Positions 1 to 13,992 of a DNA stretch of 64,000 nucleotides are shown piece by piece. The notes under the pieces were generated by a model. It worked only from the letters and a program-made list of their open reading frames with translations. It did no database searches and was not told the origin of the DNA. The first letter of the stretch is position 1. Each line of letters opens with the position of its first letter. This stretch comes from an uncultured Gemmatimonadales bacterium (GTDB lineage Bacteria; Gemmatimonadota; Gemmatimonadetes; Longimicrobiales; RSA9): positions 2,240,001-2,304,000 of the forward strand of contig OY970192.1 in assembly GCA_963708135.1 (NCBI GenBank), read 5' to 3'. The translations under genes and the position numbers were made by a program.

Positions 1-1502
1 CTGCGCACGATCTGGAGCTCCTCATCGAGCGAGACGAAGCCGCCGTCGGAGCGCTTCAGCACGGCACGGAGCAGCCCGGTGAGCCGCAGCAACGTGTCCA
101 GCGCCCGGTCCGGCGCCTCGCGGATCAGGTGCCCGATCGTGGTGAGGGTGTTGAAGAGGAAGTGTGGATTGAGCTGGGCCCGCAGCGCGCGCAGCTCCGC
201 CTCGGTGGCGAGCTGCAGGATCTCGCGCTCGCGCCGGTCGCGGGCGTAGCGCTCCTCGGCGACGCGAACGGCGTCGATGCGGCGGCCCGCCAGGTTGGCT
301 ACCGCCTCGAGCACGAGCAGGTCGTCGGAAAGGAAGCGGCGGCCCTCGTTCAGCTGGCTCACGGTCACGCGGAACGAGGGCGGGTCGGCCGTCGGGATCC
401 ATACGGTCGCCTCCCGGCCGCGTGCGGCGGCCGGCACGGTGGCCAGGCGACGGGCGCGCGGCGGCGGCTCCGTCGCCTCGCTCCAGGAGGCGTGGCTGGC
501 GGAGAAGGTCTCGGCCACCCCGGCGCACACGGTGTCCAGGACCTCGGCCGGCGTGGCCAGGGCATCGATCGCCTCGCTCACGCGGCCCACGGTCTGACGA
601 TAGTCGGTGCGCCGCAGCACGACGCGGTCCACGAAGCGGGTGATCCAGTCACGCAGCACCGGATAGGCCAGGGCGGTCAGGATCCAGAGCGCGAGCAGCA
701 GCGCGACGAGGCGGGGCCGGTCGGGATCGCGTGCCAGGTACGGCTCCAGCAGGGGCGCGCCCAGCCAGGTGTAGAGGAAGAGCGAGAGCGCCACGAGCGC
801 GAGCAGCGTGAGTACCCGCTTGAGGAAGAGGTCCGCGAGCGCGAAGCGGAAGTCCTGGTACAGGATCACGACCGCCAGCGGCAGCGAGAGGTGGTGCCCG
901 AGCAGCTCCATGAGCAGCGTGTCGGTCCCCACCTCGTGCCGACTCAGGTGCAGCGCCATCACCGCGAAGGCCGCCAGCGCCACGGCGGTCAGCACCTTCC
1001 GGGAGCGCGGCTCGTGCGGCCGCGTCATGAGCAGGATCCCCACGATCACGACGTATCCCACGCTCAGCAGCAGGAGTGCACCGCGCGCGGGCGGCGCCGC
1101 CTGCTCGAGCGCGGTGAGGATCTGCTGGGTGGCCGCCACGGCGCTCAGCGCGTAGGAGGCGGCGGCGAGCAGCCGCCCGGAGCGCGTCCACCCGCGCGAG
1201 GCCAGCGACGCGTGCACCACCACGGCCGGCAGAAAGCCGAGCGCCGAGAAGGCGACGGCGCCCAGCCACGGCTCCGGCCGCAGCAATCCGAGATCCCGGC
1301 CGCCGTAGAGGACCAGCGCTCCGCTGTTCCAGACCAGCCCCAGGACCGACGTGGCGAGCGGGATCCGGTCGCTCCGCCGCTCCTCTGGCGGACGCGGCCG
1401 GCCGGGCAGGCGCAGCGTCATGGCGCCCAGCATGGCGTAGAGAACCACGCCGGCCACGAAGCCGAGGAGGTGAACGAGCACGCCGAGGTCCTGCGGCGTC
1501 AT
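1..1502 (-). CDS. LytS/YehU-family membrane sensor histidine kinase (3' end runs off the window)
   Basis: Manual translation from ATG at 1502 (MTPQDLGVLVHLLGF...) gives several hydrophobic helices, then the LytS H-box ELRALRAQLNPHFLFNTL and ...FVSLDEELQIVR at the window edge. Absent from the ORF track because it is truncated. Confidence 0.9.
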   Translation of the reverse strand, partial: MTPQDLGVLVHLLGFVAGVVLYAMLGAMTLRLPGRPRPPEERRSDRIPLATSVLGLVWNSGALVLYGGRDLGLLRPEPWLGAVAFSALGFLPAVVVHASLASRGWTRSGRLLAAASYALSAVAATQQILTALEQAAPPARGALLLLSVGYVVIVGILLMTRPHEPRSRKVLTAVALAAFAVMALHLSRHEVGTDTLLMELLGHHLSLPLAVVILYQDFRFALADLFLKRVLTLLALVALSLFLYTWLGAPLLEPYLARDPDRPRLVALLLALWILTALAYPVLRDWITRFVDRVVLRRTDYRQTVGRVSEAIDALATPAEVLDTVCAGVAETFSASHASWSEATEPPPRARRLATVPAAARGREATVWIPTADPPSFRVTVSQLNEGRRFLSDDLLVLEAVANLAGRRIDAVRVAEERYARDRREREILQLATEAELRALRAQLNPHFLFNTLTTIGHLIREAPDRALDTLLRLTGLLRAVLKRSDGGFVSLDEELQIVR

Positions 1503-1548
1503 CTGGCGCTGGACTCCCGGGAGACAGACGCGAGCGGAAACCCGCTGC

Positions 1549-1578
1549 AGCATACGGCCCCCGGCGGCGGGCCGGCAA
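1549..1578 (-). promoter_or_regulatory. Putative sigma70 promoter of the LytS-type kinase
   Basis: Minus strand TTGCCG-N18-TATGCT, about 47 bp upstream of the ATG. Confidence 0.45.
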
Positions 1579-1587
1579 TCAGGCGTC

Positions 1588-1639
1588 GGCGAATGGTCGC
1601 AACCGGGGGGTGAACGGCGCCGCCGGGTTGACGAATCGC
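1588..1639 (-). promoter_or_regulatory. Three LytTR-type direct repeats at a 21-bp period
   Basis: Minus strand GCGATTCGTC, GCCGTTCACC, ACCATTCGCC at 1630-1639, 1609-1618 and 1588-1597. They resemble the AlgR box ACCGTTCGTC. Confidence 0.65.
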
Positions 1640-1703
1640 ATCCGGACCTGTATGCATTGCCCGTCTCCACACGCAACAAGACGTCCAATCCAGCTCGGGA
1701 ACC

Positions 1704-2078
1704 ATGCGCGGACGGACGAGTAACAGGGGCGTGCCAGCCTGCCTTCGTCGTCGCCTCCCGGCCCGATTCGCGGCCGCGGCGCTGCTCGCGCTCGTCGTGC
1801 AGCTGGGGCTGTCCGTTCTCGCGCCGATCGCGGACGCGCACGAGCCGCGGAATCTGCCGGTTCACGTCGAGCGGCCGGGCCGGCACCACATGGCGCACAA
1901 TCCCGAGATGTGCGCCTTCTGCATCGCCATTCAGGCGGGCGGCGTGCCCGCGCACGTGCAGCGGGCGCCGCTCCCGCGCGTCGTGCAGCGCGCGGTGTCT
2001 CCGCCCCAGGTCCCGGCCTCCCACACCAACACCCGCTTCTCCGTCAGCGCCGCGCGCGCACCGCCCTCCTCCGCCTGA
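1704..2078 (+). CDS. DUF2946/CruR/CutF-like leader protein (signal peptide, His-rich CxxC, C-terminal RAPP)
   Basis: Basic n-region, hydrophobic h-region, ADA|H cleavage site; RHHMAHNPEMCAFC; ends ARAPPSSA*. The start could instead be the GTG at 1731. Confidence 0.75.
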   Translation: MRGRTSNRGVPACLRRRLPARFAAAALLALVVQLGLSVLAPIADAHEPRNLPVHVERPGRHHMAHNPEMCAFCIAIQAGGVPAHVQRAPLPRVVQRAVSPPQVPASHTNTRFSVSAARAPPSSA

Positions 2079-2250
2079 GGACCATCCGGTCCTCGCACCG
2101 GCAGCACCGGCAGCAACGCATCCGACAACAGAAGGGACGGCGCACGCGAAGGCGCGTGCTCACCCCTGCGCAGGTCGCGCGCGCGTTTCCGCACATACGT
2201 GGCGGGCGTGCGCGGCCGCGCCGCAACCCGACACGGAAGACGGGACCCAC

Positions 2251-3543
2251 ATGCTCAGCACAGCCATCACGGCGCTCGCCTGCCTGTGTGCCGGCGGCCA
2301 GCTCGCGGCGACGGGAGGCGCCGTGCAGGACACGGCGGGCGTCCTCTCGCTGACGCGGGCCGAGGCCGTCCAGCGGGCGCTCGCGCACAATCCACAGCTC
2401 GAGGCGGCGCGCCAGCAGGTGGCGCAGGTCCGCGCGCAGGGGACGCAGCTGGTGGCGCTCCCCGACCCCGCACTCTCCGGCAGCTACGACGACGAGACGC
2501 GCGTGTTCCAGCTCGGTGGCTCGCATTCGCACACGCTGGGGCTCGGCTGGACGCTGCCCTTCCCCGCGAAGCTGCGCGAGCGCTACCGCATGGCGGGCGC
2601 GGACACGAAGGCGGCGCAGTTCGGGCTGGAGCAGGCGCGGCAGCTCGTGGCCGCGCAGGCGGCGCAGGACTATGACGCGCTGCTCGTGGCGGAGCGCCAC
2701 TCGCGGGACCTGACCGAGGCGCTCGCGGCCGCGCAGGACTTCGTCAAGCGCACGCAGGCGCGCTTCCAGGCGGGCACGGCGGCCAAGCTGGACGTGATCA
2801 AGGCGCAGGTGGACGCCTCGCAGGTGCAGACGGACCTCATCTCGAGCGAGCGCGACATCTCCAACGCGCGCGCGGCGCTGAATCACGTTCTGGGGCGGGC
2901 CGTCGGGCTGCCGCTGGCCGCCGCGGACACGCTGGCCACCCCCGCGGCGCTGCCGTCGCTGGAGGATCTCCGGGCACGGGCGCACGCCGCGCGACCCGAG
3001 GTCGGCGCGCTGCTCGAGCAGCGGCGGAGTGCGCACGCGGCGAAGACGCTGGCAAGGGAGTACTGGCTGCCGGACCTGGACGTGGGCGTCGAGGGCAGCG
3101 GCTCGCCGGGCGCGCCGAACTCGTTCTCGACCGGCTTCGGCATCTCCTTCCCGCTCTTCTTCTGGCAGCACCAGCGCGGCGAGGTGGCGGAGGCGGGGCA
3201 TCGGGAGCTGGAGCTGGAGGCCGACGCGCGGGACCTGTCCGCGCAGATCGAGCAGGAGGTGCGCTCCTCGTACGCGGACGCGAGCACCGCGCTGCGCCAG
3301 GTCGACTACATCGGGACCCAACTCCTCCCCGCCGCGCGCGAGGCGTACCGCATCGCCACGGTGAGCTACGGCCTGGGTGGCGCCTCCGCGCTGGAGGTGC
3401 TGGATGCCAAGCGCGCGATGCTGGACGCCGAGAGCCAGTACGCCGACGCGCTGGGCGCCGCGAACGACGCCGTATCCCAGCTGGAGCTCGCCGTGGGCGG
3501 GCCCCTCGAGCAGACTTCCTCAGGAGACCGCTCCCATGATTAG
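2251..3543 (+). CDS. czcC: TolC/CzcC-family outer membrane efflux protein
   Basis: OEP repeat pattern (LTRAEAVQRALAHNPQL; RFQAGTAAKLDVIKAQ; YGLGGASALEVLDA). First gene of a C-B-A operon. Confidence 0.88.
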   Translation: MLSTAITALACLCAGGQLAATGGAVQDTAGVLSLTRAEAVQRALAHNPQLEAARQQVAQVRAQGTQLVALPDPALSGSYDDETRVFQLGGSHSHTLGLGWTLPFPAKLRERYRMAGADTKAAQFGLEQARQLVAAQAAQDYDALLVAERHSRDLTEALAAAQDFVKRTQARFQAGTAAKLDVIKAQVDASQVQTDLISSERDISNARAALNHVLGRAVGLPLAAADTLATPAALPSLEDLRARAHAARPEVGALLEQRRSAHAAKTLAREYWLPDLDVGVEGSGSPGAPNSFSTGFGISFPLFFWQHQRGEVAEAGHRELELEADARDLSAQIEQEVRSSYADASTALRQVDYIGTQLLPAAREAYRIATVSYGLGGASALEVLDAKRAMLDAESQYADALGAANDAVSQLELAVGGPLEQTSSGDRSHD

Positions 3544-4672
3544 CAAGAGCGCGCTCGCCGTGGCGGCCGCCTCCGCCCTGCTCGTGGCCGCGGGCTGCGG
3601 CGGCACGCCCGAGACGGATGCCGCCGTGGCAGCGCCGGACACCATGAGCCTCGTGCTGCCGAAGGAGCAGCAGGCGCGGGTGAAGTCGGAGGTCGTGCAG
3701 CCGGTGAGCTACCGCGCGACGATCGAGACCACGGGCAACGTCGCCTTCGATGGCGACCAGTCCACCTCGGTGCTGGCCCCGATCTCGGGCCCTGTCACCC
3801 GCGTCCTGGTCGAGCCCGGCGCGCGGGTCCGCGCCAGCCAGCCGCTGGCCTACGTTTCCTCGCCCGACTTCGCCGCGGCGGTGGCGGACTACCGCAAGGC
3901 CATTGCGCAGGCGCGCAACGCCAGGCGCATCGCGGACCAGGACGAGCAGCTGTTCAAGAACGACGCGATCGCGCACCGGGACGTGGAGCAGGCGCAGACG
4001 GACGCACTGGCGGCGCAGGCGGACGTCGAGGCGGCGGCGCAGCAGCTCCGCTCGCTCGGCATCGACCCCGACAGCGCAATGGCCGGGAGTGGCAGCGGTC
4101 AGGCGCTGCAGGGTGTGATCCGGGCGCCGCTCTCCGGCACGCTGGTCGAGCGGCTCATCACGCCGGGGCAGCTCCTGCAGGCGGGGGCCACGCCATGCTT
4201 CACCATTGCCGACCTGTCGAAGGTGTGGGTGATGGCCAACGTCTTCACGACGGACCTGGCGCACGTGGGCGTGGGCGACCGCGCGGACATCACCACGGCG
4301 GCCTCGCCCGATACGTTCCCGGGTACGATCGACTACGTGGCCGCGCTCGTGGATCCCGCCACGAAGGCGACGTCGGTGCGCATCGTCGCCGCGAACCCCG
4401 GCCATCTGCTGCGCAAGGACATGTACGTCACGGTGGGGATCCGCTCGCGGGCCACGGATCGGGGGCTGCTCATCCCGGTCTCGTCGGTGCTGCGCGATGA
4501 CGACAATCAGCCGTTCGTCTTCCTGGACCAGGGCGGTGGACACTACCTCCGTCGCGACATCGTGCTCGGCGCGCGCGTCGGCGCGCGCTACCCGGTCGCG
4601 GCGGGGCTCAACGCGGGTGACCGCATCGTCAGCGAGGGCGGGCTGTTCCTGCAGTTCGCGCAGAGCCAGTGA
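3536..4672 (+). CDS. czcB: RND periplasmic adaptor (CzcB/CusB-like), lipoprotein
   Basis: Lipobox-like LVAAGC; biotinyl-like APISGPVTRV and IRAPLSG; FTIADLSKVWVMANV. Overlaps both neighbours. Confidence 0.9.
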   Translation: MISKSALAVAAASALLVAAGCGGTPETDAAVAAPDTMSLVLPKEQQARVKSEVVQPVSYRATIETTGNVAFDGDQSTSVLAPISGPVTRVLVEPGARVRASQPLAYVSSPDFAAAVADYRKAIAQARNARRIADQDEQLFKNDAIAHRDVEQAQTDALAAQADVEAAAQQLRSLGIDPDSAMAGSGSGQALQGVIRAPLSGTLVERLITPGQLLQAGATPCFTIADLSKVWVMANVFTTDLAHVGVGDRADITTAASPDTFPGTIDYVAALVDPATKATSVRIVAANPGHLLRKDMYVTVGIRSRATDRGLLIPVSSVLRDDDNQPFVFLDQGGGHYLRRDIVLGARVGARYPVAAGLNAGDRIVSEGGLFLQFAQSQ

Positions 4673-7600
4673 GCGGCCATGCCGTGCTGCCGCCGGCGGA
4701 GCTGGCGGAGCAGGAGGAGCTGCAGGCGGAGAAGGAGGCTTCGTTCGTCAACCGCATCGTGCGCACCGCGCTCGACCAGCCGGTGCTCGTGGTGCTACTC
4801 GCGGCGCTGCTGACGGGCGCGGGGCTCTGGTCGCTCACGCGGCTGCCGGTGGACGCCTACCCGGACCTGTCCCCGCCGCTCGTGGAGATCACAACGCAGT
4901 GGCCCGGCCACGCGGCGGAGGAGGTCGAGCGGCTGATCACGGTGCCGCTCGAGGTCGAGATGAACGGGCTGCCGGGGCTCAAGGTGATCCGCTCGGTCTC
5001 GCTCTACGGGCTGTCCAGCATCCGGCTCACGTTCACGGACGCCACGGACAGCTACTTCGCGCGCCAGCAGGCCTTCGAGCGGCTACCGGATGCCGAGCTG
5101 CCGGACGGCGTCAGCCCCGGCATCGACCCGCTCTTCTCGCCGTCCGGACTCGTCTACCGCTACGTGCTCGACTCGCCCGACCGCTCGCCGATGCAGCTGA
5201 AGAACCTGAACGACTGGGTCATCGGCCGCGCCTACAAGTCCGTGCCCGGCGTCGCGGACGAGTCCGGACTGGGCGGCGAGACCATGCAGTATCAGGTGCT
5301 GCTCGACCCGGCGCGCGTGGCCGGCGCCGGCCTCACCGTCCAGAACGTCATGGACGCGCTCGGCGCCAACAACTCGAACGCCGGCGGCGGCTTCTACTCC
5401 GAGGGCGGGCAGTTCTTTTACGTGCGCGGACTCGGACGGCTCAAGACGCTGGAGGACATCGGCAACGTCGTCGTCTCCGTCCACGATGGCATCCCCGTCC
5501 TGGTGAAGGACGTCGGCCGGATCGTCGTGGGGCACGCCCCCCGCCTCGGCCAGTTCGGCTTCAACGACCGCGACGACGCCGTGGAAGGCGTCATCCTCAT
5601 GCGCAAGGGCGAGCAGACGCAGACGGTGCTCAAGGGCGTCGAGGCCAGGACCCGCCTGCTGAACGAGAAGATCCTGCCGAAGGACGTGCGGATCCATCCG
5701 TTCTACGACCGCAGCGACCTGGTCAAGCTGACCGAGCACACCGTGGCGGACAACCTGCTGCGCGGGATCCTGCTCGTCCTCGTGGTGCTGGTCTTCTTCC
5801 TCTGGGACATCCGCTCGGGGCTGATCGTCACGGCGGCCATCCCGGGAGCGCTGCTCTTCGCCTTCATCTTCCTGGACCTGCGCCACATTCCGGCCAACCT
5901 CCTCTCCATCGGCGCCATCGACTTCGGCATCCTGGTCGATGGCGCGGTGTTCATGGTGGAGAACATCTTCCGCCAGCTCGCGGCGCGCGAGGGCACGGAC
6001 TACGACATCCGCCACGTCATCGCCGCCGCCGCCGCGGAGGTCGACCGGCCGATCCTCTACTCGATCGCCGTCATCGTGGCCGGCTTCCTGCCGATCTACG
6101 TGCTCTCCGGCCCGTCCGGGCGGCTGTTCAAGCCAATGGCGGACACGACCATCTTCGCCCTCATCGGCGCGCTGCTGGTCACGCTGACCGTGCTGCCGGT
6201 GCTCTGCTCGCTGCTCATGCGTGGCGGCGTGCGGGAACGGGTGAACCCGGCGTTCGAGTGGTCCAAGCGCCAGTATGCGCGCGGGCTCCAGTGGTCGCTC
6301 GCCCGGCCGTGGCCGGTGGTGATCGGCTCGACGGCGATCTTCGTGGCCTCGCTCCTCCTGCTCCGCGTGATCGGCGCCGAGTTCATGCCCAAGCTGGACG
6401 AGGGTGCCCTCTGGGTGCGGGCCACCATGCCGTACACGATCAGCTTCGACGAGTCGTCGAAGATCGTGCCGCAGGTCCGCGCCATCCTGCGCTCCTTCCC
6501 CGAGGTCACCGACGTGGGGTCGGAGCACGGCCGGCCCGATGACGGGACCGACCCCACCGGCTTCTTCAACGCGGAGTTCTACGTCGGCCTGAAGCCGTAC
6601 GACCAGTGGAAGGGCCCGTATCACAAGAAGCAGCAGCTGATCGACGCCGTCGCCAGCAAGCTATCCGTCTTCCCCGGCATCACGTTCAACTTCACGCAGC
6701 CGGCCGAGGATGCGGTGGACGAGGCCGAGACGGGCCTCAAGAGCGCCCTCGACGTGAAGATCTTCGGACCGGACCTGAACGTGCTGGAGAGGAGCGCGAA
6801 GCAGGTGAAGCTGGCCATGCAGAAGGTGCCCGGCATCAATCACGTCATCGTGGTGGAGGAGCTCGGGCAGCCGTCGCTCACGATCACGCCCAACCGCGCG
6901 GCCATGGCGCGCTACGGCGTCAGCGTGGATGACATGAACAACCTGATCAATGCCGCCGTGGGCGGGGCCACGGCCACCTCCGTGCAGCAGGGCGAGCGGC
7001 TCTACGACCTGGTCGTGCGGCTCGGGCCCGAGTACCGGGGCAACCCCGACCAGATCGGCAACATCCTGGTGCCCACGCCGGACGGTCAGCAGGTGCCGCT
7101 GCACGAGCTGGCCACCCTCGACGTGTCGAGCGGCGCCAGCTTCATCTACAGGCAGGACAATGCCCGCTTCATCGGCGTGCAGTTCGCCGTCGAGGGGCGC
7201 GACCTCGCCAGCGCCGTCCAGGACGCGCAGCGCACGGTCGCGGAGGCGGTCAAGCTGCCGCCGGGCTACCGCGCGGTCTGGGGCGGCGAGTACTCGGAGT
7301 ACACGGCCTCGCGGCACCAGCTGGTGGTGGTCCTGCCGCTCACGATCCTCGCCATCTTCCTGCTGCTCTTCGCGCTCTACGGCAACTTCAAGTTCCCGTT
7401 CATCACCGTCGTCGGCGTGATCCTGTCGGCGCCCGTGGGCGGCCTCCTGGCGCTGCTCGTCACCCGCACGCCATTCTCCGTCTCCTCGGGCATCGGATTC
7501 CTCGCCCTGTTCGGCGTCTCCGTCCAGACGGCGGTGGTCTACATCTCGTACGCCAACGAGCTGCGAAAAGGAGGTTACGACATCACCCTCGCCACGGTCG

Positions 7601-7821
7601 AGGCGGCGGTCCTGCGGCTGAGGCCGATCATGATGACGGCGCTCGTGGCCGCGTTGGGGCTGCTGCCGGCCGCGCTCTCCACGGGCGTCGGCTCGGACTC
7701 GCAGCGCCCCTTCGCCATCGTGATCGTGGGCGGGCTGTTCAGCCGGCTGCTGATCAGCGTCTTCCTCATGCCCGTGCTGTATCAGATGGTCGCGCGCGAG
7801 GGAGACAGGCTTAAGGTCTGA
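4669..7821 (+). CDS. czcA: Heavy-metal efflux RND permease (CzcA/CusA family)
   Basis: 1050 aa. LPVDAYPD, AAEEVERLITVPLE, TM4 AIDFGILVDGAVFMVEN, RLRPIMMTALVA, GSDSQRPFAIV. Confidence 0.95.
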   Translation: MSGHAVLPPAELAEQEELQAEKEASFVNRIVRTALDQPVLVVLLAALLTGAGLWSLTRLPVDAYPDLSPPLVEITTQWPGHAAEEVERLITVPLEVEMNGLPGLKVIRSVSLYGLSSIRLTFTDATDSYFARQQAFERLPDAELPDGVSPGIDPLFSPSGLVYRYVLDSPDRSPMQLKNLNDWVIGRAYKSVPGVADESGLGGETMQYQVLLDPARVAGAGLTVQNVMDALGANNSNAGGGFYSEGGQFFYVRGLGRLKTLEDIGNVVVSVHDGIPVLVKDVGRIVVGHAPRLGQFGFNDRDDAVEGVILMRKGEQTQTVLKGVEARTRLLNEKILPKDVRIHPFYDRSDLVKLTEHTVADNLLRGILLVLVVLVFFLWDIRSGLIVTAAIPGALLFAFIFLDLRHIPANLLSIGAIDFGILVDGAVFMVENIFRQLAAREGTDYDIRHVIAAAAAEVDRPILYSIAVIVAGFLPIYVLSGPSGRLFKPMADTTIFALIGALLVTLTVLPVLCSLLMRGGVRERVNPAFEWSKRQYARGLQWSLARPWPVVIGSTAIFVASLLLLRVIGAEFMPKLDEGALWVRATMPYTISFDESSKIVPQVRAILRSFPEVTDVGSEHGRPDDGTDPTGFFNAEFYVGLKPYDQWKGPYHKKQQLIDAVASKLSVFPGITFNFTQPAEDAVDEAETGLKSALDVKIFGPDLNVLERSAKQVKLAMQKVPGINHVIVVEELGQPSLTITPNRAAMARYGVSVDDMNNLINAAVGGATATSVQQGERLYDLVVRLGPEYRGNPDQIGNILVPTPDGQQVPLHELATLDVSSGASFIYRQDNARFIGVQFAVEGRDLASAVQDAQRTVAEAVKLPPGYRAVWGGEYSEYTASRHQLVVVLPLTILAIFLLLFALYGNFKFPFITVVGVILSAPVGGLLALLVTRTPFSVSSGIGFLALFGVSVQTAVVYISYANELRKGGYDITLATVEAAVLRLRPIMMTALVAALGLLPAALSTGVGSDSQRPFAIVIVGGLFSRLLISVFLMPVLYQMVAREGDRLKV

Positions 7822-7914: not shown

Positions 7915-8415
7915 TCAGCCGCGCTCGGCCCTGATCACGCTGATCTGGCCATCCGGCTCGAGGTACGCCTCCTCGACCTGGTCCAGGGAATTCACCCCGT
8001 GCAGCCGCAGCTGCTCCCTGACCTGCTGTCGCGTCAGGAACTCGCTGGCGAGGTTCTCGTAGAGGATCCGGCCGTCCGCCACGATCAGCTTCGGCCGCGC
8101 GCGCAGCAGCCGCCGGAAGAGGCGGCTCCTGAAGGCGAGGAAGTTCAGGAACCAGTTCCAGAAGATGAGCACCGCCGCCGCAACGAGCGCGTCACCCACC
8201 GTGTTGAAGTTGCCGACGAGTCCCCGCCGCACCGTGCTGGCCAGCAGCACCAGGACCAGCATGTCCGAGACCCCGATCCGCCCCGCCTCCCGGCGCAGGA
8301 TCGTGCGGAAGACGAGGTAGAGGAGCAGATAGATGAACGACACCCGCACGATGTGCTCGAGCAGGGGCTCACGCGGCCAGAAGAAGCTCGCCCAGTCGTG
8401 CGGGATGATCGGCAT
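7915..8415 (-). CDS. DUF421/YetF-family membrane protein
   Basis: Three TM helices, RREAGRI..SD motif, and P.LIVADGRI...LRLHGV..L.QVEEAYLEPDGQISVI. ATG at 8415 follows GGAGG. Confidence 0.88.
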   Translation of the reverse strand: MPIIPHDWASFFWPREPLLEHIVRVSFIYLLLYLVFRTILRREAGRIGVSDMLVLVLLASTVRRGLVGNFNTVGDALVAAAVLIFWNWFLNFLAFRSRLFRRLLRARPKLIVADGRILYENLASEFLTRQQVREQLRLHGVNSLDQVEEAYLEPDGQISVIRAERG

Positions 8416-12583: not shown

Positions 12584-13636
12584 TCAGTCGCCCGCGCCGG
12601 CGGTGTCGTAGCCCTTCACGCGATAGAGGACCGCGGAGCCGATCCAGGTGCCGACGAAGACGAGCACGACCAGCGCGCCGATCAGGCCGAAGCGGCCGTT
12701 CAGCGAGGCGATCGCGCTCCACACTCCGCCGTGCAGCCCGAGCTTCCCGGCCAGCAGCCCGAGCGCCTCGATGCCCCCCACAACGAGCGCCACCAGCACG
12801 GAGACGAACGTGATCGTCATGTTGTAGTAGAGCTTCCGGATCGGCTTCCGGAACGCCCAGCCGTACGCCCCCACCATGAGCACGTTGTCCGTCGTGTCCA
12901 CCAGCGACATGCCCGCCGTGAACAGTGCCGGGAACACCAGGATCGACCAGATCGACATCCCCCGCGCCGCGCCCACCGCCGAGATCCCGAGCAGCCCGAT
13001 CTCCGTCGCCGTGTCGAAGCCGAGCCCGAAGAGCAGCCCCAGCGGGTACATGTGCCAGCTGCGGCGGATCATGCCGAAGAGCGGGCGGAAGATGCGCGCG
13101 AGCAGGCCGCCGCCCGTGAGCAGCAGATCGAGGTCGGCCTCGTCGTGGCTGCCGCCGGCGCGGACCCGGCGGAAGGCGCGGTAGACGGAACCCAGGATCA
13201 CCAGGTTCATCACCGCGATCCCGAGCAGGAAAGCGGCCGAGACCAGCGTGCCGACCACGCTCGCCATCCCCCGCAGCCCCTCCAGCCGCGTGTTCAGCGC
13301 GAGCGCCGTGGCCGCGATCGCCACTGAGGCGAGCACCACCACGGTCGAGTGTCCGAGCGAGAAGAAGAAGCCCACCCCCACCGGCCTCTTCCCCTCCTGC
13401 ATCAGCTTGCGCGTGACGTTGTCGATCGCCGCGATGTGGTCGGCGTCGATGGCGTGCCGCAGCCCCAGCCCGTACGCCAGAAGCCCCGTGCCGAGGAGCA
13501 GCGGATAGTGGCGGAACGCCGAGAACGCCCACAGCCACGCCGCCAGGTTGCCCACCCCCAGCAGCCCGTACAGCGCTAGAACGCGGCCGCGCACATCGAC
13601 CGCGTCATCCCGCAGGATGCTCCCCATGGAGCGCAT
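12584..13636 (-). CDS. High-affinity Ni/Co permease (NiCoT; HoxN/HupN/NixA family)
   Basis: Signatures GLRHAIDADHIAAID, FFSLGHSTVV, LFGLGFDTATE, GMSLVDTTD. The start may be the ATG at 13627. Confidence 0.95.
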   Translation of the reverse strand: MRSMGSILRDDAVDVRGRVLALYGLLGVGNLAAWLWAFSAFRHYPLLLGTGLLAYGLGLRHAIDADHIAAIDNVTRKLMQEGKRPVGVGFFFSLGHSTVVVLASVAIAATALALNTRLEGLRGMASVVGTLVSAAFLLGIAVMNLVILGSVYRAFRRVRAGGSHDEADLDLLLTGGGLLARIFRPLFGMIRRSWHMYPLGLLFGLGFDTATEIGLLGISAVGAARGMSIWSILVFPALFTAGMSLVDTTDNVLMVGAYGWAFRKPIRKLYYNMTITFVSVLVALVVGGIEALGLLAGKLGLHGGVWSAIASLNGRFGLIGALVVLVFVGTWIGSAVLYRVKGYDTAGAGD

Positions 13637-13992
13637 CCGCCCCCCATCCCGTAGGCGACCGCCGCGGCGCCATGGAAGCTCGTGCGCTTTCCGCGGGCGG
13701 CGATCTCGTTGCGCGGGAAATCTAGCAGCCCCGCGCCCCTCGCGCCCCAGCACTACCGGCGCCAGCCGGACGCCCGAGCGTCAGAACCGTGCCCACCACT
13801 CCCGCGCCTGGCCGAGGTGCCACGGCCCGGGGTCGATCCGGCGCGTTCGAATCCCGGTTCGACTCCGCACGTTCGCCCGTCTGCTCCCGCTCGACGTAGC
13901 AGATCGTCGTTGACCGACCGGCTGCGAGCCATCACATTGGCGGTCCGGGCAGGAACTGCTACGGACCCCGCGGGAGCGATGGAGGGCCGAGG

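Follow-up and report, generated by a model that had tools for sequence, protein, structure and literature searches.

A 124-codon open reading frame lies directly upstream of, and co-oriented with, genes for an outer membrane factor, a membrane fusion protein and an RND permease in the DNA shown above (64,000 nucleotides in full, hereafter the window). An earlier note on this DNA had read the frame as the gene for a leader peptide that senses metal while still attached to the ribosome and, by implication, turns on a detoxifying pump when metal is abundant. The locus raises the question of whether this leader is a real arrest regulator and, if so, which metal it senses and in which direction it drives the pump. 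Direction is the key issue here, as both tested leaders of the CruR/CutF class sense copper and respond to it in opposite ways.

The frame, an export signal of Sec type and a 44-residue spacer running up to an RAPP motif three residues before the stop were all found as the earlier note had described them, with the start of the outer membrane factor gene (OEP family) at 2251, 172 nt downstream (Table 1). The Arg-rich N-terminus is followed by one confident helix at residues 20-45 of a structure model (pLDDT >90 at 21-40), and A-D-A at residues 43-45 is a possible cleavage site. This signal helix is the sole confident part of the model (pTM 0.39), which has no secondary structure past residue 77. 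Residues 60-73 read RHHMAHNPEMCAFC, and the 44 residues of the spacer separate C73 from R118. The arrangement CxxC-x(43-46)-R[AGS]PP-x(1-7)-stop occurs in 2 of the 44,052 stop-to-stop segments of the genome, namely the leader and an Arg/Pro-rich segment that lacks the His cluster, and a profile of the leader family matched this genome only once.

Table 1. Features of the leader and pump operon (positions within the window).
Feature	Position	Strand	Evidence or remark
Leader ORF, candidate CruR/CutF-like RAPP arrest peptide	1704..2078	+	124 aa, ATG start, TGA stop
Export signal: Arg-rich n-region, hydrophobic helix, A-D-A 43-45	1704..1838	+	hydrophobicity, model helix
Putative metal site H61 H62 H65 C70 C73; conserved core H65-x4-C70xxC73	1884..1922	+	
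44-residue low-structure spacer	1923..2054	+	conserved length, model
C-rich, G-poor stretch, 41 C / 16 G	2021..2098	+	candidate Rho loading site as in cruR; partly due to Pro codons
Leader codons pairing with the pump Shine-Dalgarno (SD) region 2232-2244	2032..2043	+	predicted pair probabilities 0.8-0.99, footprint blocked or not
Candidate RAPP arrest motif, residues 118-121 of 124	2055..2066	+	
Intergenic region, 172 nt, structured, SD-like sequence at 2235-2244	2079..2250	+	
Outer membrane factor, OEP/TolC family, CzcC-like	2251..3543	+	PF02321 E 1.5e-59
Membrane fusion protein, nearest solved structure ZneB	3536..4672	+	3LNN E 2.4e-38, next match 1.9e-14
Heavy-metal RND permease, CusA/CzcA family, probable HME3a (ZneA/ZniA) type, Leu at ZneA E136 position	4669..7821	+	TIGR00914 876 bits, cut-off 701

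A scan of positions 1450-2400 for sigma-70 promoters and terminators found none; by eye, TTGACG and TATGCA spaced by 17 nt at 1628-1656 (+) form a weak sigma-70-like site, below threshold in that scan, 48 nt upstream of the leader start. The OEP reading frame stays open at 1657-3543 (+) across the entire leader, in a different frame, probably as an effect of GC content. A frameshift from the leader into this frame was considered and rejected, as the frame is open from before 1657 here, yet extends as far as RAPP in just 8 of the 69 loci.

The leader alignment held no conserved stretch fit for a locus scan, so loci were collected through the pump genes. Searches with the OEP protein yielded 4 relatives in 60 near genomes and matches in 75 of 401 genomes of the phylum, own genome included. 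Seventy-four pump loci were kept (the own locus, the 4 near ones and 69 of the other 74), and five were left out, among them that of G202, a genome counted only in the 75/401 above and the 262/401 below. A leader lies upstream of the pump in 70 of the 74, ending in R[AG]PP in 69 cases and in RSPP in one; three loci have none and one is cut off. Two automatic picks in the wrong frame were taken out by eye, and a reverse-complement control fired in 1/71.

The alignment of orthologous loci proposed in the earlier note thus returned a retained RAPP at a retained distance. Over the 69 aligned leaders C70, R118, P120 and P121 are invariant, and 68 of them carry the hydrophobic segment. CxxC is found in 49, with a spacer to RAPP of 44 residues in 36 and of 43-46 in 48 of these. 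The HHxxH-CxxC motif proposed earlier is present at this locus, but of its HHxxH half only the His five residues N-terminal of CxxC is conserved (48 of the 48 leaders with CxxC at 43-46). The remaining leaders (~20-21/69) have a single conserved Cys 45-48 residues before RAPP and almost always a His 4-5 residues N-terminal of that Cys; members of this single-Cys class (L005, L011, L012, L017, L023, L036 and others) occasionally have a second Cys 5-7 residues back. The spacer sequence is unconserved, the distance from Cys to RAPP is fixed, and RAPP is written with many synonymous codons, so the motif is kept as protein. These codons are skewed towards rare ones, Arg being CGA in 25/69 (6-7% background) and the first Pro being CCT or CCA in 46/69 (12-15% background), with importer leaders (see below) alike in both.

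In an overlapping set of loci gathered with the RND permease, a leader was found in 60 of the 62 with enough upstream DNA, including Alphaproteobacteria and Acidobacteriota, and a Verrucomicrobiota pump locus with a shorter flank has one too. Several alphaproteobacterial pump copies (L088, L092, L098, L108, L118, L121, L125, L129 and L135) have a different outer membrane factor and still carry CxxC and RAPP leaders. In total, the leader profile matched in 262 of the 401 phylum genomes and 2,280 protein representatives at E <=0.001.

The pump was classified from its residues. Against solved structures, the permease matched ZneA (4K0E) at E 1.6e-218 and CusA at 5.6e-155, and its site residues were read against the site table of PMC7060636. 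Its transmembrane helix (TMH) IV reads DFG-x3-DGA-x3-VEN, with Glu at 658, a proximal site L-D-E-D-E and a distal site E-D-D. Neither the CusA/HME4 signature (A[VI]G-x3-DAA in TMH IV, Met at 658) nor the CzcA/HME1 site pattern (E-D-D-L/M-E) is present. Of the HME3a features (ZneA, ZniA, HmvA) it has the DFG-x3-D helix, four of the five residues of the proximal E-D-E-D-(D/E) and the whole distal E-D-D; in all 79 related pumps Leu takes the position of ZneA E136. On these sequence features the pump is ZneA/ZniA-like, of divalent-metal type and not a CusA, and HME3a fits by site residues. Moreover, the genome has a separate CusA-like operon at which the leader profile has no match. Given this operon and the class of the pump, copper, the signal of the characterised examples cited in the earlier note, is a less likely signal for the leader.

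No metal regulator adjoins the operon, in agreement with the earlier note. Divergently oriented beside the leader, however, are genes for a LytS-type kinase (PF06580) and a response regulator. This kinase, the response regulator and a TonB-dependent-receptor-like gene occupy 3-1553 (-) and run left past the window (G000:C1:2236247-2241553). The kinase was rejected as part of the system because a similar one occurs in 1/79 related loci. No conserved fourth gene was found 3' of the pump among the 51/61 downstream ORFs scanned, and a porin within <=5 kb downstream was seen in 1/79 loci, behind a leader of its own. Past the pump, at 7915-8400 (-), lies a DUF421/YetF gene of opposite orientation, and the ORF at 12584-13753 (-) encodes what we take to be a nickel/cobalt permease of the HoxN/NixA kind. 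In this closed genome no porin, ZnuA or ZIP match was obtained; two Nramp genes are present, as is rho. An ABC-3 permease gene lies at G000:C1:1262150-1262926, with no ZnuA-family binding protein found in the genome, and a further rho-like gene, which scores under the family cut-off, at G000:C1:3540296-3541435.

The genes found behind other members of the leader family bear most directly on direction. From the phylum profile matches, 41 further leader loci were hand-picked, 37 of which were followed by a gene of sufficient length for scanning. In 25 cases its product is a porin-like barrel that no Pfam family matches with confidence, in 11 a TonB-receptor-type protein (6 with a barrel match) and in one an OEP; all 37 serve envelope transport and none is sec or yidC. 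ZnuA follows the porin in 21 of the 23 cases scanned and is followed in turn by an ABC-3 permease, giving an operon of the form porin-ZnuA-ZnuB; no adjoining ATPase gene was seen in three such operons (L227, L230 and L232), and L229 has one. Pump and importer leaders have an identical His/Cys pattern and spacing. They interleave on a quick tree (111 columns), in a clustered manner, with at least 4 changes of cargo forced by well-supported branches, and motif, spacing and switch helix are unchanged between leaders of up to 68% identity that precede opposite cargo.

Some genomes display the exchange at a single site. In the congeneric pair G219/G171 both flanks, the leader, the gap, the ribosome-binding site (RBS) and the first signal peptide are common, one member having a pump and its partner porin-ZnuA-ZnuB; the same holds for the congeneric G095/G106 with respect to the upstream flank, leader, gap, RBS and first signal peptide. 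The flanks are also common in G345/G325, where G345 retains a porin before the leader, without ZnuA. Tandem paralogous leaders occur as well (L132:8072-8429, L082 after the RND gene, L206, L207 and L210), one before the pump and the second before an adjoining TonB receptor or porin-ZnuA operon; they are 59-60% identical in two genomes.

The two kinds of cargo are, furthermore, nearly mutually exclusive. The porin is present in 172 of the 401 phylum genomes, but in 5 of 73 pump genomes; in the two large families it occurs in 3/37 pump genomes against 22.5 expected and in 2/32 against 9.0 expected. Within 14 mixed genera the overlap of pump and porin was 3 versus 13.7 expected (p 9e-8 by a hand tally of listed genomes; p = 0.004 when the tally is enlarged by half as many unlisted genomes lacking both). 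ZnuA was found in 6/76 pump genomes. Control transporters showed no such exclusion, with Nramp in 71/73 pump genomes vs 61/76 chosen porin genomes and ZIP in 54/73 vs 65/76. Literature searches found neither the cargo swap nor the near mutual exclusion with zinc uptake, and it is the occurrence of this leader family also at the head of porin-ZnuA-ZnuB operons, with cargo swaps, that is new here.

We infer translation of the leader, stalling on it, the identity of the metal, the direction of control and the route of coupling to the pump, all within the following scheme. That the leader is a real arrest regulator is very probable, and the position of RAPP, the spacer of 44 residues (45 in CruR), the conservation and a family-wide pairing of the last codons with the RBS suggest that it is a cis-acting one of CruR/CutF kind, as the earlier note had supposed. 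It would act in cis, with the ribosome stalling at RAPP by default on a membrane-targeted nascent chain whose H-x4-CxxC, 44 residues back, would be just clear of the tunnel. A divalent metal, most likely zinc, would bind or drive folding at the His/Cys site, pull on the chain and free the ribosome, as has been put forward for CruR. A zinc finger folding on its metal has been shown to exert such a pull on an arrest peptide. In most relatives the stalled ribosome would keep the operon on by unmasking the next RBS, and shortage of metal would then lead to synthesis of the ZneA/ZniA-like pump, which would sit in the regulatory slot that holds the porin-ZnuA-ZnuB genes in sister lineages.

The argument for this direction runs through the importers. 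These should be expressed in metal scarcity, which means that their stall should stand for on and that metal should release it, as in CruR; a pump that took the place of the cargo in a retained cassette would inherit that logic. As orthologous leaders head zinc-uptake operons, the direction implied earlier, in which metal turns the pump on, becomes doubtful, and expression of the pump in metal shortage is the direction that we somewhat favour. The nearest characterised systems, ZniCBA and ZneCBA of Cupriavidus metallidurans, are reported to be induced by starvation (see below), in keeping with this direction. Folding predictions for the family point the same way. In the 69 pump loci, 20-nt windows starting at RAPP favour the RBS of their own locus over those of other loci in pairing (z -7.9; -6.9 for windows 10 nt later), a score to be read with the caution that start codons were chosen by a heuristic rewarding SD strength and that related loci are not independent; windows upstream of the RAPP codons gave z between -2.4 and 0.8. 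Blocking the footprint of a stalled ribosome opened the RBS by >=1 kcal/mol in 45 of these 69 loci and closed it in 7, and a control block opened it in 19 and closed it in 13. At the importer loci the pairing z was -5.8, and the footprint opened 20/36 and closed 2 (control 7/36). The stall is thus predicted to mean on for both types of cargo, though not at the own locus.

Several observations stand against expression in shortage. The footprint does not open the RBS at the own locus, RND pumps of its class are established exporters, the loci compared are related to one another rather than independent, and those of importers were picked by hand. Moreover, the higher frequency of Nramp in pump genomes given above would fit a difference in habitat that could itself drive the exclusion. 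A further step, which we put forward tentatively and with less confidence than the direction itself, is that the pump is a functional stand-in for the porin-ZnuA-ZnuB importer, on in shortage and aiding zinc acquisition by import, by mobilising zinc or by clearing competing metals from non-specific carriers.

The strongest competing account, which we nonetheless consider rather unlikely, is that the leader works like CutF: metal would prolong the stall and turn on a detoxifying exporter, lineages of metal-rich or acid habitats having swapped uptake for efflux and retuned the leader. CutF itself responds in that direction, the pump retains the proton-relay motif and 4/5 of the proximal-site acidic residues of ZneA, Nramp is slightly in excess in pump genomes, and outer membrane proteins of RND pumps are the commonest neighbours of CutF-like leaders. 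On the other hand, the response would have to flip at each of the >=4 cargo changes despite leaders up to 68% identical, and the motifs of CutF are CxxxC and PPP rather than CxxC and RAPP.

Folding of the own locus suggests a different route to expression in metal excess. The leader codons predicted to pair with the pump SD region sit just upstream of the predicted footprint of the stalled ribosome, and a parked ribosome could leave them free to sequester the SD, such that release by metal and read-through would turn the pump on. With the stall footprint the opening energy of the RBS rises from 11.4 to 13.0 kcal/mol, an increase seen in most choices of window and footprint (by 1-2.6 kcal/mol for the footprint of a single ribosome), so by folding alone the stall could even mean off here. 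This inverted wiring is nevertheless improbable, since the effect is near that of control blocks and changes sign with a wider footprint in one of three windows, and since the closest relatives differ, L003 (6.3) and L083 (1.1) opening with the footprint and L004 remaining unchanged. Single, wide and double footprints gave no consistent unmasking of the own RBS. Opening was also absent in L224, a member of a swap pair, and in the paralogue pair L012/L206. Native codons of the own leader pair with the RBS no better than random synonymous recodings (p 0.12), and the folding z-score of the whole region, -1.38, is not significant. For expression in shortage at this locus, with its long gap, the on state would more probably come from a block of Rho or from a ribosome queue over the anti-SD, and by analogy with cruR a Rho control acting on the C-rich stretch is plausible.

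Marginally less probable again is a leader that serves mainly as a secretion monitor of the ApdA/ApdP kind, or as a small metal-binding protein that works in the periplasm once exported, a role suggested for CzcI. The export signal would suit either role, and CzcI, encoded before czcCBA, has been proposed as a metal-sensing regulator; the fixed distance from Cys to RAPP over an unconserved spacer with little predicted structure, and the envelope-transport genes behind all 37 scanned leaders, with no sec or yidC among them, argue against both. Finally, a chance ORF is hardly credible: DNA of 72% GC does yield many long frames, 523 of the 44,052 segments end near R[AG]PP, and a single-sequence search returned only the query itself (the leader being too divergent for a word index), but conservation in 70/74 loci with synonymous variation and 2,280 profile representatives refute it.

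A near-identical leader, RBS and signal peptide before either an importer or an RND pump makes direction testable with one reporter. If both cargo types shut off in metal, a heavy-metal RND pump would belong to a shortage response, which bears on the induction of such pumps by starvation in Cupriavidus metallidurans; if pump and importer leaders differ, a few changed residues would show how an arrest sensor flips its sign. The zinc reading, if true, would extend nascent-chain metal sensing from copper to zinc. The role of importer stand-in, if true, would offer a genetic entry point to the induction of ZniCBA and ZneCBA by starvation, so far unexplained, and would suggest that the 'efflux' label of many RAPP-led operons is mistaken.

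Among known systems, ZneA and ZneB of C. metallidurans are the closest solved structures to the pump proteins; TMH IV and the site residues fit HME3a, and the 602-610 segment of the permease ends in GFFNAE, as in ZniA. The own operon differs from ZniCBA and ZneCBA in its gene order C-B-A behind a leader and in the Leu for E136. Both C. metallidurans systems are reported to increase when EDTA starves the cells of metal, an outcome that its authors describe as unexpected (PMC11647595), and control of ZniCBA is ascribed to antisense RNA. Klebsiella zniCBA was set aside as an ABC importer that shares the name only.

The context of an RAPP leader ahead of an RND pump is already in print, contrary to the impression given by the earlier note. 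With 124 residues (limit <150), PP at 120-121 within the last 15 residues and the next same-strand gene 172 nt away (limit 1000 nt), our leader passes the filters of the list of CutF-like proteins, in which outer membrane proteins of RND pumps are given as the commonest neighbours (PMC9973294, Ozturk 2023). Among the matches listed by Fujiwara 2025 (PMC12992588), uORFs with RAPP outnumber those with AAPP before RND adaptors (620 vs 148), TolC (530 vs 380) and CusA/CzcA (50 vs 7), and single RAPP uORFs, again among the matches listed, precede 'zinc-regulated TonB-dependent' receptors. Our literature search found no RND-linked leader described as tested, in line with the examples known to the earlier note. 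CzcI, SilD and CusD of Cupriavidus are small exported proteins of the CutF-like set, none of them reported in that source as tested for arrest, and CzcI is described there as having no proline motif at its C-terminus (PMC9973294). Compared by this description only, CzcI and the leader are both small, exported and encoded before a pump, and only the leader has the proline motif. Like ApdA and ApdP (PMC12992588, PMC10951233), the leader is a small exported protein with RAPP close to its C-terminal end; they precede protein-localisation genes, whereas the leader, with its fixed His/Cys site, is followed by genes for metal transport, not sec or yidC.

CutF of Rhodobacter capsulatus is reported to stall at PPP in copper and thereby to unmask the next SD, the stalling being induced by copper and sensitive to EF-P (bioRxiv 10.1101/2025.02.05.636593), while the RAPP arrest of ApdA/ApdP is reported to resist EF-P (PMC12992588). 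The leader has CxxC and RAPP in place of the CxxxC and PPP of CutF proper, whose motifs it therefore lacks. Unmasking of the next SD is predicted for 45/69 leader relatives as well, not at the own locus, and by analogy control in the direction opposite to that of CutF is the more likely.

CruR (Bp2923) of Bordetella pertussis is the nearer model. Its CxxC and RAPP are 45 residues apart, expression is reported to require RAPP, and copper shut-off to require CxxC and to act through Rho (PMC9426467); its arrest has been demonstrated in vitro (PMC12992588). Both combine an export signal and CxxC with an RAPP that three residues separate from the stop, both have a C-rich stretch, and the gap to the next gene is 172 nt here and 162 nt in CruR. 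They differ in that the leader family has a conserved His five residues before CxxC, that its RAPP codons are often rare where those of CruR are described as frequent, that RBS pairing is predicted in most leader relatives, and that the cargo is a ZneA/ZniA-like pump rather than a TonB receptor. The search against DUF2946 proposed in the earlier note yielded a sub-threshold match only (PF11162 on residues 56-121, 14.9 bits vs a gathering cut-off of 23.7, E 0.046); 34 of 69 homologous leaders match at E <=0.1, the best at 2.9e-5. A Pfam DUF2946 search over the own genome gave one unrelated sub-threshold match and did not recover the leader, and NCBIfam had no match to it. For DUF2946 the expected place is the first gene of an operon for copper homeostasis; the leader gene does come first, here with a divalent-cation-type pump as cargo and with relatives at the head of ZnuA operons. 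On these sequence comparisons the leader represents a divergent, probably zinc-linked branch of CruR-like peptides lying outside the Pfam score limit.
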